64,000 nucleotides of DNA. It comes from Mytilus edulis. Its lineage: Eukaryota. The notes beneath the pieces were generated by a model, which was not told the origin of the DNA, did no database searches, and saw only the letters and a program-made list of their open reading frames with translations. The stretch is from the NCBI RefSeq assembly GCF_963676685.1, contig NC_092356.1:30194001-30258000 (forward strand), given 5' to 3'. Each line of letters begins with the position of its first letter. Position 1 is the first letter of the stretch. The position numbers were made by a program, and so were the translations under genes. Of the stretch, positions 3,660 through 39,700 are shown piece by piece.

Positions 3660-4174
3660 TGGCTAAAAGTCGCCGTCAAATCCACAGTTGACCAGGCGTA
3701 ACTAAGGAGGGACCCGCCATTTTGAATTGATGAATCAACAAATGTTCGATTACTACTATATAATCGAAAATAAAACAACACCTACCTCGAATTCGCCGTT
3801 TTAATGTAATTTTATCCTAATTTGAAGCACACAGGTAAAGTAATAACCTCCAGTTTGTAAGTTTTCATTTGTATGACGTCACGTTTAGCCATGACGTCTT
3901 TGTGCCAAAATCATTCATGAAGTTTCGCGGATTTTTTTTATTTGACAAATTTAGACATTTTTTCAAGTTTTATCGTATTTTTTCTTTTTGTAATGCATTA
4001 GAATCGGAATAACAGTACTGTAGTTGAAGAGTTGCCACCGTCAATTTTGATTTGACGGTCGCAAATCTCCGTTTTACTGTCTCCGCTACGCGTCGCCAAT
4101 AAAACTGCATTTGCGACCGTCAAATCTACAATTGACGGTGGCAACTCTTCAACTTCAGTACTGTTATTCCTTAA
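3660..4174. mobile_element. Non-autonomous element ending in a ~165-bp palindrome (MITE-like)
   Basis: Inverted arms GGAATAACAGTACTG...CAGTACTGTTATTCC (4006-4170) followed by TTAA; interrupts the RTE RT. Left boundary uncertain. Confidence 0.6.
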
Positions 4175-29932: not shown

Positions 29933-32208
29933 CATTAAATTATAACATTAACAGTAAATGGAGTATGCAATGTTGCTGATATAAATAGTGTGAGCAACAG
30001 CCTGTGTGACCTAATGTGTTATTAAATTATCTCATTAAAGTAATAGAGTTGGTTTTTTAAATCTTATTGGGCTTAATAAAGTGCGAAGTGTGCTTTAAAT
30101 ATAACTCATATCAAACTGATTGATAAGTTAATAAATCATCGAGACACGAAGAATCGACCTCGTTCGTGGAAAGTTGGCCTGAGATTATTTGTTAACACCA
30201 TTTTGTGTTATATCAACACGAATCATATCTGTTCAGAATATAGGTTGAGACATCACTTAACTAATTTATAAACACGTTACCATTACATATAATTAATTGT
30301 GGTTGAAGACAGAAAATAGGCGAGTGACTTTAACCATAAAATTTAATTTTTAATGCACCTACCTAACACACGGCTAAATGATATATCATTTGAAAGCTAC
30401 ATATCTGTACTATCTGTTTTGCTCGGTCGTAAAAAAATCGTACGGTGCAATTTTCGTCAAATCAAGATCAAAGGCCAAGGACGAATAAGTGCATATTTTC
30501 TAAGATTTCAGCCTGATTGCATAATATGACTTTTATATACTAAATTCACATATGTTAACAATTTAAACATTTAGCAGAGAGAAAGCGTGTTTTTGACAGA
30601 GAGCACATGTTTCCTGAAATTCGAGTAAAAGTTAACAAAATGTGTGAAACCCCAAATTTTTCTTTCTGGTGCAAATGCTAATCAATTAAAACTAAGTAAA
30701 TCCCTGTAATTACTATCAAAGAAGTTTTTGACATCATAAAATTTCCTAAAATTATGCTTACTTCTAAACAAACAGCAAATCATAACAACTCATACAGTTG
30801 CCCAAAATACCGCCATCTGCGAAAAAAACGCTTTTAAGCATGTTTTTCCTATTTAAACATTGTATATGGTCAATATAAGATTAAATAAACAAATTCTTAA
30901 GAATCTGAAAATTTAAAGTAAAAAAATATGTGCGCGAATCATCTTATTGCTTGAAATAAAGGGGGTGAAACTAAGAGATTGCAATCTGCATTGTAACTAC
31001 GTATACTAGACTGAAATAAACATATTTCGACTTTTCTAATTGTTTGATTTGTAGCTTTATTATAAATATTGATGTAGTGAAAAGACTTTTTATTTATGTA
31101 ATGTGAATTGAAAATTTAGACTAAAATAAATAGAAAATAAATTGATGAAAATTGAAATTTCAAAGAATTTCAAAAACTAGTAAACACATTCTAAAACTTG
31201 ACTTCTTGATTGCTTAAATTGCGTTGTTCATTGTTTACATGCATTAATTCATCAAATAAGAATAATTTTGAAGAAAAAAAATCCATTAATCCGCAACGAT
31301 TCTAGTTACAACTAGACTTCCTGAATAGCTTGAATAACTAGTTCATTTTTCATACGAGGATGACTTCATGCAAGAGTTTCTGATGACAACTGAAAAGAAG
31401 CTATCATTATCTTGAAACTTCACTTTCCATTATATAGATGATGTCATTTCACTGAATAGTGCAAAATTTGTGACAATGTTGGACTCGTATTTTCCATTGA
31501 AATTGAAAAAAAAGACTCAACAGATATAGTTTACTCTATCACATATCTTGAAATTGATGATGAGGGTTGGTTGAGAACAAGTTTTACGACAAAAGAGATG
31601 AGCATAAAACAACCCATAAAAACACCCCTTACTACCAAATTATGAACTTTTCATTTCTATGTAACAACATTATAGCAACGCCTGCATATCTATACTACTT
31701 AAGGAGGAGACCGATTTCATTGAGCCTCAACTCCTCTGAAATAAAGGCAACTAAAGTATACCGCTATTCAATACTCATCAATCGATTTACTAGTAACTGA
31801 AATAAATCCGGGTCACAAAGCAAAAACTAGGAAAATGCATCAACTATAAGAGGAACACAACGATATAACAGAAACACAGAACTGCTACAAAAACAAACGC
31901 CAACATACAAAGAAACAGATTATTCGAGACCAACTGCCATATGCCTGACTTGGTACAGGACATTTGAAGAAAAATGGTGGTTTAAACATGTTTTAAACCA
32001 GAGTTTAAATGCAAAGTTGAAATCATCCCTTTGAAAATTTCATGGACGTCACTACGAGTTGGTTGACAATTTTGAGATATCTGTTTCGCCAAATGACTAC
32101 TAATAAGTTCCATCGACGTAACCAAATTGTCGTCATTTCTGCCATGAATGTCACCAACCGAATAAGGCTTGGCACCGAGTTAGGAAATACATGAGCCACA
32201 AGATGGGT

Positions 32209-33532: not shown

Positions 33533-35361
33533 AAGACGGGTGTCACATGTGGAACATGATCTGCCTACCCTTTTGGAGCCCCTGAGTTCACAATTTTTTT
33601 GGGGGTTTGTGTTACTCAATCTGTAGTTTTATATGTTGTGTTTTGTATACTGTTGCTTGTCTTGTTCGTTTTTTGTCCGGCTTTGTCAGTTCGTTTTTAA
33701 TTATGAGTTTGATGTCCCTTTGACATATTTCGTCACTATTCAAGTAGTGAAAAGTTTAAAAATTATAGATCAGTGTAGCTAAATGTATCATGATAACGAT
33801 TTGGTTCTATATATATATATCACCGTGAGCAAATTAAGTTATTTTCGCGGATATTTGTCTTATTGCGTTAATCTTCTTCACTTTACTTTGAGGTGATTTT
33901 TTGGCCGATTTTCATTACTGCAAGTTAATCATGTTAATGTCTTTAAAGTAAAGTAATACCAAAGGGACAATCAACATCACAAACCATGAATCAAATAAAG
34001 TTAATTAAAACCATGAACAAAATAAAATTAAAGTCCAAGAGACAAACAACAGTCCAAAAAACACAGCATACCATGAAAATGAACACTCCTAAAACAGAGA
34101 ATGATCTGATGAGGTCGGGAAGGGTATTTGACTTTTTCATTTTGTTATTTCACAACTGTTTATAGTGTTTTACATACACAATGACATGCATTAGTATTTT
34201 TAAAGCTTATGTAGAAAATACTCAAAGCATCTTTTATTCAAATAATTAAAGCGATTAAACTTCTAAATATGACTTACTATAACACGATTTGAAACTAAAT
34301 AAGAAGCAGTCGCATTTTATTTAGTTCGTTTACATCCCGCTTTAGACAACCAAGTGTTTCTAAACAAGGTTACTTATTTCAATGTTGCCAACGATTTAGT
34401 CGCAAAGTAATGTTTGCATTTAAACATGATTACAAAAAGTAAAAAAGTTTGACTTCGTAAAAAACATATTTTAACCTCAATTACCTCGCATATATTCTTT
34501 TCTTACTTTAAATACCCCTTCTTTTATTATAGAAAATCATTCTCCTCTCTGATATTCACAATTAGCGATGTGCTATTTTAACATAAATTAACAAAATGAT
34601 CGCTTTTTGCAGATGGCAGACTTTTGGGCAACTGCAAACACTTCAATAGAAGGCTGTTCCATGAACAATAATTAATAATTGCATCTTAAAATTACAAAAA
34701 AAATATTCCTTGACCTAAAACATATACATTTATTCATTTTTTTAGCATACAAATATCGATTCCCTAAGATATATTTTGCTTTTTGAATAATTTTTCATTT
34801 TTTTTTAGGATTTGTGATCAATTTCAGTTTTCGGGAAATTTTGCGCATCGAATCTCTTATTTTTTGTTTGATTTGGAAATTATGTATTATGTTCCACAAA
34901 GTTCATATGATCTTTTGGAAAATTTTATGGTACAAGAATTAGAAAATGGCGTTTTATTTAGTAATCGCAAAAATTTGAATGTTTTTTCATGACCTTTGAC
35001 CTTGATTTAACAAAAATTGCACCGTACGATATTTTTACGACCGGGCAAAACAGAAAGTACAGATTAACAGCTTTCGAATGATATATAATACAGCCGTGTG
35101 TTAGGTGGGTGCATTAAATTCGTTAACTAAGCGTCTTTTTGAAATAAATCACTCGCCTAAAAGTATAAATTTGAGTTGCGGAGAAAACATGTTTGTATTC
35201 GGTACGAATGGAAGAAACAATAACTGTCAGTGTGATGGACAGACACAATTGTAATCGGGTTAAAGGACAAAACCCTAATGAATAAGGATCGAAGAAAGAC
35301 ACATTTGTATATCGGGTTGGGAACAAAATTCTGAGTGCATTGAACATTAGTGTGTGGCATC

Positions 35362-37882
35362 TAATAGTTATTATTACATACGATTGTGAACAGATATATC
35401 ATGATATGGAGGGGTATTTGCGAAAGATACCAGTCGAGGGACTGTGACATTTCCCAAACCGCTAGGCGAGGGAAATTTGGTCCCAAGACTGGTATGTTTC
35501 TCAAATACCCCTCTACAACATGATATATTTTGTAACGTCATGGTATGATTGTGTAAACGTCATTGTTTTCCATTATTTTATCGTTCATATGTATAGACGT
35601 CTTTTTTCCCGAATTGGTTTAACTCAATCAATAGTGTTTGTCTTTTAATAATCGGGAGAGAGTTTGAAAGGTTCGGAATAATTTTGGCGGCAAGACACTC
35701 GCAGGGAAAAAAATGAATATCAACAATGACAAATACCACGGCAGGGAAGGGACTTTGAAGAGTAATTACACCTTATGTAAGAATGCTGCATCTTGATTGG
35801 TTAAGAACAAGTGTATTTTTTGCATTTTCTGAACTTTTTTTTCATTTCAAAATAATTTTGGCTTTTTTTCACCACTGCCGGTGAATTTGACGCAAATACC
35901 ATGGTATTTGCCATTTTGGATACTCCTTTTTTACCCTCGCGAGCCCCACCAAATTATTCGGAACGTTTCTCTCCTTATCCCGATTATTAAGGTAACGTGA
36001 TTAATCAATATTGATTGATAGAGATTATCCGAATACTGTAAACAAAAATGTCAACTCACACGGCTGCAGGCGGTCGTGAGTTAGAAAGATTTGGTACTGC
36101 TGAAGATGACGATATCGATAATTTGATGAATGATGTGTTGGCAAATAACACTAAAAAGTCAACCAAGTTTGCATTAAAACTAGTTTATGACTACTGTGTG
36201 TCTAAAGGGATAGACGCAGACATCGATGACAGAAGCCCAGCCAGTTTAAATAATTTGTTAAAGGAATTTTATGTAAACATTCGCCAAGCAAATGGAGATT
36301 ACTATTCCAGGAGTAGCTTTTGTGTCATTCGACAGTCTATCAATAGGCATCTAAAGCAGCCGCCACACAACAAACCCTTTGATATTATAACTGATACTGC
36401 ATTTACTACGGCAAACAACATCTTTAAAGCAATGTGCAAGAAACTTAGGAAGGAAGGCAAGGGACAAATTAAACATAAAAAGTCTGTTGACAAAGGTGAT
36501 ATTAAGAAACTGTATGAACATCCACGTACATTCAATGTTAATTCACCTTCTGGACTATTAAATAAAGTGTGGTTTGAGGTTCTTTTTTTTTTGCCGCCGG
36601 GTGCAAAAAATCTCCGTGAAATGAATCCACAAGACTTTCAAATTTCTGAAGATGATGAAGGGAAACAATACGTACACAAGATTTCATCTGAAATGACAAA
36701 AAAAAAACACTAGGGAGTGGACGAAGAAGACTTTGAGCCGGAAGGGGGCAGAATGTATGCCAAAGGAACCCCAATGTGTCCAGTTTTGTCTTTCAAAAAG
36801 TATCTTGGTAAACTTAACACAAACCAAACTGCATTTTGGCAGAAACCAAGAAATTATTTTGATGAAGAGGATGAAATATGGTATGAAAATTAACCCCTTG
36901 GGAAGAACACTTTAGGAAGTAAGATGAAAAACATTTCTGAATCTGCAAATTTATTGAAGCCAGACATATTGTCACTATTTCAGGCCATAGGAATGAGGAG
37001 AGTGTACAGAACTATGTTCATGACACATCCACAGCGCAGAAGCATGACATGTCTGCTACAATTTTGTCGTATACAGCTGCAAATTCAACTGCAAGCTCAA
37101 CTGCAAATTTAGATCAAAACAATAACAATGAAAATATTAATAATTTTGTTTTTGATGTCAATGAATCAGATTTAACTGAAGATCAGTGTGATAACATTTT
37201 TGAAATCATTCAACAAGGAGAAGCTGAATTGCACCCTCTTTCCGACTCTACCAACAAAAATCCACCAGTACAGACTACTGGAATGAATAAGCACCTATCG
37301 TGTTTAATAACTGTAATGTTACCATTTACAATATTTCATAAAATTCATGTTTTGAACATTTATAGTTGACACTGTTATTTTTCATGTTTCTGTATGTATT
37401 ACACATGGAATATTCATTTTATAAATGTTTAACAAATTAAAGTTTATCAATCTTGCACACTCAATTTATTGACATAAAATAGTTGTTGTGGTATAATTCC
37501 TAATGAGATCATATAATTATTCACAAATGCAAATTATGCATAAACATGTTTATGGATTACAGCTAACTACTACTGGTAACAAAAAGATTTCCTTTGACCT
37601 GTACAAACAGTTATAATCAAGATAGATTCGGTGTAATTAAACAGATATATCATGTTATGGAGGGGTATTTGCGAAAAATACCAGTCTTGGGACCAAATTT
37701 CCCTCGACTGGTATTTTTCGCAAATACCCCTCCATAACATGATATATCTGTTCAAAATTACCGGCAGTAGAGGAAAAACAGGCAAATTCGTTTGAAATGA
37801 GGAAAAATGTTAAAATATGCGAGAGAAAAAACTTGGCTAACAACCAATTTAAATCCGGCATTCTTATGTAAGGTGTAATTAA
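35362..37882 (+). mobile_element. Crypton-like tyrosine-recombinase element with two large palindromes and imperfect ~130-bp inverted repeats
   Basis: YR pseudogene; inverted repeats 35763-35890 / 37750-37881 (TAATTACACCTTA..); palindromes at 35389-35530 and 37640-37752; the 28-bp host array resumes on both sides. Confidence 0.8.
36048..37100 (+). pseudogene. Tyrosine recombinase, DUF3504/KCTD1/ZMYM-like (Crypton type), disrupted
   Basis: LKEFYVNIRQANGDYYSRSS..INRHL; LLNKVWFE..FCRR..NLREM; CPVLSFKKYL; WY..PLGKNTL; ARHIVTISGHRNEESVQNY (catalytic H and Y region). Frameshift at ~36600, stops at 36711 and 36891, HxxR segment deleted. Confidence 0.85.
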
Positions 37883-39700
37883 CGACGGAAACATTAGATA
37901 TGATGATGGAAGAGAGACGCACTATTTATTTTGGTTGAAGATAGAAAATTCATGTATTGGGTCGGGAAAATAAGCATTACAAATTCGTATTTATATCAGA
38001 AATATTAGTAATCGATTCGTTTCTCCGACAATGATTACTCAGGTCTAGAGCTGAATCATTACTAACAAGGGTAGATTCATTAACATTGATAACTCGGTTC
38101 TAAGACAGAATACTTCGATAATTAACATTGCTAAATGGGGTATAGGACAGAATCATAATTATTTATCGCGATTCATTAACATTAATAACTCGGACCTAGG
38201 ACATACTCATAACGTATAAGAGTCGATCTAGAGCCATTGGTTAATGGGGTCGAAAACACAATAATAACGTGAAAGGGTCGATTCAGTAAGATTTTAACGT
38301 GAAGTTGAGGACATAGTCCTGTTTATTTTGTAGACCCCATTAGTGATATTGGTGGGGGACAGAGTTATTAGTAATTATTTTATAGGATATATATGTAAAA
38401 GGGATCGAAACACATATTTAATTGGGCTCTACTACAGAAACAGTGATTCTTTTTTTTTTTTACTGAGGACAGAACGATAAGTACTTTAAGTCCTGGACAG
38501 AAACATATATTTTGATAGCTGAGGAGAAAAACATAAACAATTGATGTGAAGGACAGAACTATTTGAATTTGAATCGAGGACAGAAGTGTGAAAAATTGAA
38601 GTCAACGACAGAAACAAAAATGATTTGGGTCATGTACAAAAGCATTTACAATTCGGGTAGAGGACAGAAATATTATTTGTTTTGGTCTTGGACAGTACAA
38701 TTACTAATTGGGATTTAGAATAGAAATATTGGTAAATAGGATTGAGGACAGAAACATTGGAAATAAGTTAGAGGACAGAATTATTAGTAATTTGGATCGA
38801 AGACACATTTTTCAGCAAAATCATTTGTAATTGTGGTCGAAGACAGACAGAATCATCGGTTAGTGTGGTCGACACATAAAACGTACACTATTAAAACGTT
38901 CAAACCTGTTGCATTTTTTTCACCTGTCCTAAGTCAGGATTCCGATGTTCAGCAGTTGTTGTTTGTTGATGTGGTTCATAAGTGTTTTTTATATACATTA
39001 GACCATTGGTTTCCCGTTTGAATGGTTTCACACTAGTATTTTAGGGACCCTGTATAGCTTGCTGTTCGATGTGAGCCATGGGTCCGTCATTTGACTTATA
39101 CATGTTATAATTGTACTTTTACAAATTGTGACTTGGATGGAGAGTTGTCTCTTTGGCATTCTTACCCTATCTTTTTATGTCTAATTATAATTAATAATCG
39201 GGGACGGGGAAAGAAATAATAATAGTTTACGTCAAGACAGAAACATTAGCAATACATTGGGTCGTGAACAGAATAATAATTAATTAAAACGGAGGGCAGA
39301 AACATTAGTAATTTAGGTCGAGAACAGACAATGAATCATTGAGGTATAGGACAGTAATATCACTCATTGGGATCAAGGATTGCAATTTAGTTATTTGGGT
39401 CGATGACAAACACATAAGAAGTTGTGGTCGAGAACATAATTATGAGGAATTAGGATCGAATATTGAAATATGTATTATTGGGATCGAGGCAGAAACATTT
39501 CTAACATAACAGTCAGTTATTGTGGTCGAAAATAATATGCAGTAATAATTATGGGTAGAAGACAACAATAGTATTAATTTTAGTCTAGAAAGGAAAGAAG
39601 AGTTGATTGGGTCAAGAGAGAAACGTTATTGACTTGGGTCAATCAGATACATTACTAATTGGGATCGTTGACAGGAAAATTACTAAAAGGGGTCTAATAA
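37883..39700 (+). repeat. Highly degenerate 28-bp tandem array (also at 35160-35361 and ~30130-30316)
   Basis: Approximate consensus GGGTCGAGGACAGAAACATTAGTAATTG; GAGGACAG recurs at ~38576, 38660 and 38744 (3 x 28 spacing). Confidence 0.75.

Follow-up and report, generated by a model that had tools for sequence, protein, structure and literature searches.

The window analysed here, a stretch of 64,000 nucleotides of the Mytilus edulis genome, contains what is by its sequence a CryptonA-type (DUF3504 tyrosine recombinase, YR) transposon inserted in reverse orientation inside a 503-bp gene-less non-autonomous relative. The family has the layout end A, body, mirror of A (A′B′), long hairpin, end B, and we propose, at a probability of roughly 0.6, that it moves as a folded single DNA strand in an integron-like manner, one strand exchange being resolved by replication. 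The ends of animal Cryptons have been reported as featureless (PMC3212892). If the proposal is true, a eukaryotic recombinase would use a folded strand to insert DNA scarlessly and with no need for core homology, a point of interest for genome-engineering tools. If it also held for animal CryptonA elements in general, integron-type chemistry would exist in eukaryotes, and the DUF3504 domain, domesticated in KCTD1, ZMYM and QRICH1, would have had it as its original activity. The base-exact ends, the target rule, the predicted 7/5 bottom-strand substrate and the natural intact 451-aa enzymes make the proposal testable with oligonucleotides. In an oyster, Crypton-A elements are reported to rank with the commonest polymorphic insertions, so that the mechanism is also relevant to variation in bivalves.

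Two nested elements in opposite orientation

The first-pass annotation had described one element spanning 35362-37882, in which two palindromes flank a single gene. Our analyses refute this and yield boundaries of 35763-37754 for an inner and 35387-37881 for an outer element. By search of the 1.37-Gb genome we found eight other loci matching from about 35763 through the ORF with unrelated flanks; all of these sister copies begin with TAATTACACC and seven of the eight end with GATATATCTGTTCA or a one-base variant of it. Because the sisters share these ends amid unrelated flanks, the inner element comprises 35763-37754 (plus strand, 1992 bp). It is a defective copy of the autonomous type, 93-94% identical to seven sisters, which are mutually 96.5-99% identical. 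Its end A, TAATTACACC (35763-35772, plus strand), is followed by a broken DUF3504 tyrosine-recombinase gene (36048-37341, plus strand), by the internal mirror of the element's joined ends (37630-37651, plus strand), in which A′ (37630-37639) directly precedes B′ with a 5-nt core, and by the 3′ terminal hairpin (37640-37752, plus strand), here missing about 32 nt of the apex present in most sisters. The 7-nt core CTGTTCA at end B (37748-37754, plus strand) closes the element, its last 2 nt being unpartnered in the mirror.

The outer non-autonomous element runs on the minus strand and is interrupted, its 503 bp being divided into a 5′ part of 127 bp (37755-37881), which has its end A at 37872-37881 and aligns to positions 1-125 of its relatives, and a 3′ part of 376 bp (35387-35762), in which the A′ mirror is lost and the alignment to relatives resumes at about position 136. 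Its 3′ terminal hairpin (35389-35530, minus strand) has an apex mini-hairpin with a GCTA loop on the element's bottom strand. The target of the inner insertion, i.e. left arm and 6-nt core CTTT GAAGAG (35753-35762, plus strand) and right arm AAAT (37755-37758), fits the target consensus of the family.

The repeats themselves had been described correctly: the inverted repeat at 37640-37752, perfect over 47 bp with 19 nt between its arms, is present (in 20 mononucleotide-shuffled versions of the region the longest one measured 8-12 bp), as are the left palindrome with its CGCTAGGCG apex (CGCTAGGCG at 35460) and the three motif sites, GGTGTAATTAA at 37630 and 37872 and TAATTACACC inverted at 35763. 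It is the nesting in opposite orientation which gives them another meaning, the two palindromes being the 3′ ends of two elements and the 130-bp inverted repeats their 5′ ends. The latter match over about 145 bp at 73% (35763-35907 / 37734-37881) and belong to two different elements, and GGTGTAATTA at 37872, previously taken as a partner site, is the start of the outer element. A releasable palindrome module of about 250 bp, as suggested earlier, is likewise an appearance created by nesting; only one of 51 unique right flanks, the locus itself, resembles 37755-37784, and genuine non-autonomous members have both ends and, for the most part, a length of 388-655 bp.

The site of the outer element is empty in four of five paralogous flanks, which read straight across with no base gained or lost. 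Searching the assembly for an uninterrupted close relative of the outer subfamily gave matches of 68-69% at best, so that the empty site of the inner insertion itself is deduced solely from colinearity. Contigs of four public runs contain a joint of 35743 to 37774 in two runs, the intervening letters not being recovered, which is a hint of an uninterrupted outer element.

The internal 5′ region of the inner element matches that of the outer one in inverted orientation (35645-35741 / 35899-35990), again a by-product of the nesting. The flanks (35185-35386 and 37882-38200) belong to a locally duplicated block (C13:30.06-30.28 Mb) present in at least six copies on the contig, 15-58 kb apart, and holding a degenerate 28-bp repeat array. 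To the left of the locus, 34900-35160 is a very high-copy repeat with a depth in the thousands in four runs and an inverted partial match at 30349-30477.

A CryptonA-type recombinase with intact sister copies

As proposed in the first-pass annotation, the gene encodes a Crypton-type YR and its enzyme is dead in this copy, in which the frame is interrupted by two stops (36711 and 36891) and by frameshifts, and a 64-bp deletion following 36953 takes out the H-x-x-R motif. The search for intact members and empty sites which it had recommended was successful for both: there are exact empty sites, and three of the eight sisters encode an intact enzyme. Four of the eight have an open 451-aa frame, and the three keep all six catalytic residues of the R-(K)-H-x-x-R-H-Y set (R185, K219, H309, R312, H335 and Y344), which is lost in the locus copy and of which each residue is kept in 57-60 of 60 homologues. 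One intact sister protein is identical to a Mytilus edulis KIAA1958-like record, and the intact 451-aa form matches DUF3504 (E=1.9e-13), Phage_integrase (E=2.5e-8) and, weakly, QRICH1; the homologues are KCTD1/KIAA1958-like proteins in molluscs, echinoderms and cnidarians. In a Foldseek search with a structure predicted from 60 sequences (pLDDT 78; a single-sequence AlphaFold model with pLDDT 32 was discarded), Cre was the top match (E=1.6e-7), IntI (2a3v) ranking below (E=3e-5). Each element of about 2.1 kb has one ORF, a YR of DUF3504 type; reverse transcriptase (RT) and GCR1_C domains are absent.

Protein and lack of a target-site duplication (TSD) identify the element as CryptonA-type. It shares with the reported CryptonA elements the single DUF3504-type YR ORF, the size of about 2 kb, the animal host, many short derivatives and the lack of a TSD (Kojima and Jurka 2011, PMC3212892; Glomhoppers, PMC13465315). 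Animal Cryptons were reported there to have no terminal repeats, the terminus of CryptonA-1_OL being listed as n.d. (PMC3212892), and the later texts consulted on Cryptons describe short direct repeats only. In contrast, the mussel elements have base-exact ends, an internal junction mirror, a hairpin of about 145 nt and a palindromic N6 target. In the papers searched, largely on Cryptons and Eulor repeats, we found neither this end structure nor the proposed mechanism described; Repbase/Dfam notes, the 2020 Kojima review and bioRxiv supplements, outside that scope, may mention hairpin ends. CryptonF-1_cRei of Chlamydomonas is an active Crypton reported to form precise junctions and to rise in copy number despite excisions; it uses near-identical 5-bp donor and target sequences (CACCG/CAYCG), whereas the mussel donor and target cores are non-homologous (PMC9977147).

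Ends, internal mirror and terminal hairpin

We paired the ends of 57 elements (202-2584 bp, three nested composite spans among them), of which 52 have the exact A start, 48 the exact B end and 54 an A′ directly before B′; 54 show the asymmetric inverted repeat together with the terminal hairpin. The 26-nt mirror motif has 331 exact matches in the genome and its reversed control none. Reverse-complemented, the mirror is identical to the B-to-A junction except that the final 2 nt are missing, the joined ends reading ATAT-7 nt-TAAT and the mirror ATAT-5 nt-TAAT, to which we refer as the 7/5 rule. For a whole 508-nt copy, the predicted fold has B:B′ and A:A′ abutting with 2 nt unpaired (z=-10.7). 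Hairpin stems are near-perfect over 47-70 bp, and the core CTGTTCA is exact in 26 of 29 hairpin ends which were selected blind to the core. Some Crypton-derived repeats in Repbase/Dfam are noted as hairpin-forming.

An internal region complementary to both extremities, which is essential there, is also the logic of the YR element DIRS-1 (PMC7192593), raising the alternative that an RNA copy is reverse-transcribed in trans, the mirror serving as internal complementary region from which the ends are rebuilt before the recombinase integrates the DNA. We regard this as very improbable, as the 2-kb element has no reverse transcriptase, the mirror is no exact template because the ends keep 2 nt missing from it, the direction of the ORF is reversed in one family (L101/L103) and the apex loops are mostly not of GNRA type. 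The mussel element furthermore differs from DIRS-1 in having neither gag, RT and RNase H ORFs nor long inverted terminal repeats, in a mirror 2 nt short of the junction in three well-sampled families and in the lack of a trinucleotide repeat at both ends; single-stranded DNA intermediates, reported for DIRS-1 (PMC7192593), would be a shared feature that is only inferred here.

The layout extends to other YR families. We examined 26 YR loci of 29-100% identity: a hairpin of 60 nt or more lies close by in 22 and is absent from four; A and A′ match, as judged by reading, in 16 of the 26, six more being without clear match. Different YR families bear different hairpins at the same place, i.e. unrelated sequences in the same layout. 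The 7/5 rule holds in family F114 (91 mirror matches), which has its own palindromic target of about AATAT-N6-ATRTT, in F064 (132 mirror matches; about AACAT-N6-ATGTT) and also in F2, L110 and the metagenome loci L227 and L282, changes in A being matched in A′; F102 (three copies) gives no clean 7/5 count. Of 80 metagenome loci, ten are followed by a hairpin of 130 nt or longer and two (L227, L282) show the full layout; among the 30 with at least 900 nt downstream, only eight have such a hairpin. In L101 (1987-2098) and L103 (2172-2250) the hairpin lies upstream of the YR gene, the layout being the same with the ORF reversed.

That the hairpin is an unrelated MITE or Helentron-type element inserted twice by chance has a negligible probability. 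Sub-terminal inverted repeats with a 3′ hairpin do recall Helitrons of the second type (PMC8969392), but intact YR copies at unrelated loci are bounded by the same ends, distinct YR families have distinct hairpins at the same position and the target is of the recombinase type, arm-N6-arm. A chance insertion of a MITE is refuted by the shared ends and the family-specific hairpins, the hairpin being integral to the family instead of lacking in its other copies. The autonomous partner sharing these ends codes for a YR and, unlike in Helentrons/HINEs, for no HUH Rep-helicase.

Loops and unpaired bases of the hairpins show a strand bias. Of 19 families, 11 have apex loops of the GN1-2A type, described as extra-stable DNA mini-hairpins (PMC13037366), exclusively on the bottom strand, one (L108) exclusively on the top strand and seven on neither (p=0.006, a value overstating independence because the families are related). 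Unpaired hairpin bases of the top strand comprise 191 pyrimidines versus 50 purines in the 19 families, and the bottom-strand hairpin is the more stable one in 15 of 19. G-T versus A-C pairs show no strand bias (7 versus 9, in a tally that takes in apex misalignments). Elsewhere in the window, a second, sequence-unrelated hairpin of 167 nt (4006-4170) has the apex type of locus L069 with a GTA loop on the bottom strand and is probably the 3′ end of another Crypton-family element.

A cruciform route, in which the hairpin would extrude from the duplex and the recombinase would process the four-arm junction like a Holliday junction without a free single-stranded circle, a hairpin-capped end being possible, could account for several of these observations: the near-perfect 47-70-bp stems, the constrained right-flank arm, the WWAT motif borne by all arms (A′, B twice and the right flank) and the identical folded 7/5 site that would arise. 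By itself it does not explain the joining of the far end A, and it leaves the strand bias of loops and mismatches unexplained because a cruciform folds both strands; we therefore judge it unlikely, while ranking it first among the alternatives.

Target site and proposed exchange of one strand

After dropping duplicate and tandem sides, 53 left and 51 right flanks define the target consensus ATWT-N6|AWAT with insertion at the right edge of the core. T at -9 is found in 51/53 left flanks and A at +3 in 51/51 right flanks, the two being symmetric about 6 nt, and A at -1, present in 31/53 targets, equals the last base of the element. The absence of a clear TSD, already pointed out in the earlier reading, is borne out: 41 of 50 rows have no match at all compared to a shuffled mean of 43.3, and TAA, considered as a TSD, is rejected, as duplications do not exceed the shuffled level. 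Upon removal of the nested copy in L083, the join is identical to 14 of 17 uninterrupted 388-bp copies and one base off in the other three. A direct repeat of 4-6 bp at both termini like in CryptonF/CryptonS is absent; the right flank varies and has only a WWAT-like similarity to the TAAT start.

The element's core is found at the left end in none of 53 sites. At the right end it is present with at most one mismatch in 28/29, 22/24 and 17/20 hairpin ends of three families, at loci chosen by the mirror alone and blind to the core; a further one, one and five loci have no recognisable arm. In L124 the left target core equals the last 6 nt of the element (a 6/7 core match; chance about 0.017 over 53 sites), and this junction may be a rare second-strand product.

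That the element invariably keeps its own core at the right end suggests the exchange of one strand, the bottom strand; a crossover at the right core edge, combined with the standard YR polarity (3′-phosphotyrosine, 5′-OH; PMC5871717), points to the same strand. Hairpin loop and nucleotide skew independently favour the bottom strand, in agreement with this footprint. With two exchanges across non-matching cores, about half of the products should have the element core on the left side or a foreign one on the right, and such products are essentially missing.

This bears on a route via a double-stranded circle that recombines by exchange of both strands irrespective of homology, as in Tn916/Tn1549 or the Goodwin Crypton model; hairpin and mirror would then have an accessory role, as signals for binding or replication. 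For Cryptons the prevailing model is a circular one, the A at -1 matching the element's last base would fit it, and both the lack of a TSD and the target, with AT-rich arms in inverted orientation flanking a non-homologous core of 6 bp, resemble Tn916/Tn1549 (PMC5871717). However, the carried-over or swapped cores it predicts are essentially absent, the mussel core being constant and one-sided instead of a variable crossover sequence; the duplex-site spacings are 7 and 5, neither of which equals the 6 bp of the target; and there is no reason for a junction mirror in 54 of 57 copies. We consider this route improbable, somewhat more so than the cruciform.

Our data support instead a model according to which, on the bottom strand, A would pair with A′ and B with B′, bringing the two ends together. 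The joined ends would form the recombinase site, two arms around an unpaired 7-nt/5-nt core; the enzyme would cut the folded bottom strand and the bottom strand of the target, followed by a single swap, and replication would resolve the resulting junction in the double-stranded target. The hairpin- or cruciform-dependent YR system postulated in the first-pass annotation thereby stands in so far as a folded-DNA substrate is the best reading, and falls as to the release of a palindrome module, there being no such module. The proposed route parallels integron attC x attI recombination, in which the bottom strand folds, has unpaired features and a nucleotide skew and is recombined by a tyrosine recombinase (PMC3458562; PMC5027507); one strand exchange with replicative resolution would be a further similarity. 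Unlike in integrons, the mussel site is composite, formed from both ends and the internal mirror, the enzyme is encoded inside the element, the host is a eukaryote and the copies are dispersed with unrelated flanks, lacking an attI/Pc platform, cassette array or gene cassettes.

Several observations speak against a folded strand: no GN1-2A loop is seen in seven of 19 families, and in L108 it is the top strand that bears it; covariation would also arise if the inverted repeats were read as duplex DNA; a single strand of 0.4-2 kb would have to be exposed in an animal nucleus; four of 26 YR loci have no hairpin and six more no clear A/A′ match; long downstream hairpins are present in only eight of the 30 metagenome loci with enough sequence; the F102 count is not clean and L124 has a left core. 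Weighing both sides, we lean, a little less firmly than for the movement of this family, towards animal CryptonA elements being eukaryotic single-strand recombination transposons, which would combine a Cre-fold enzyme, a structure-defined site built from both ends and the internal mirror, a single-strand exchange with a target, ATWT-N6-AWAT, of almost free sequence, and resolution by replication.

Four exact head-to-tail junctions were found, two of which join different subfamilies. Taking them as proof of circles was rejected, as the left junction itself fits the consensus target and insertion into left junctions explains head-to-tail copies. The target consensus is matched by the left junction as well as by GGTATTTGCCAAAA, a motif within the 5′ region, and family members often insert into or beside one another (L083, L135, L004, L039, L043 and L044).
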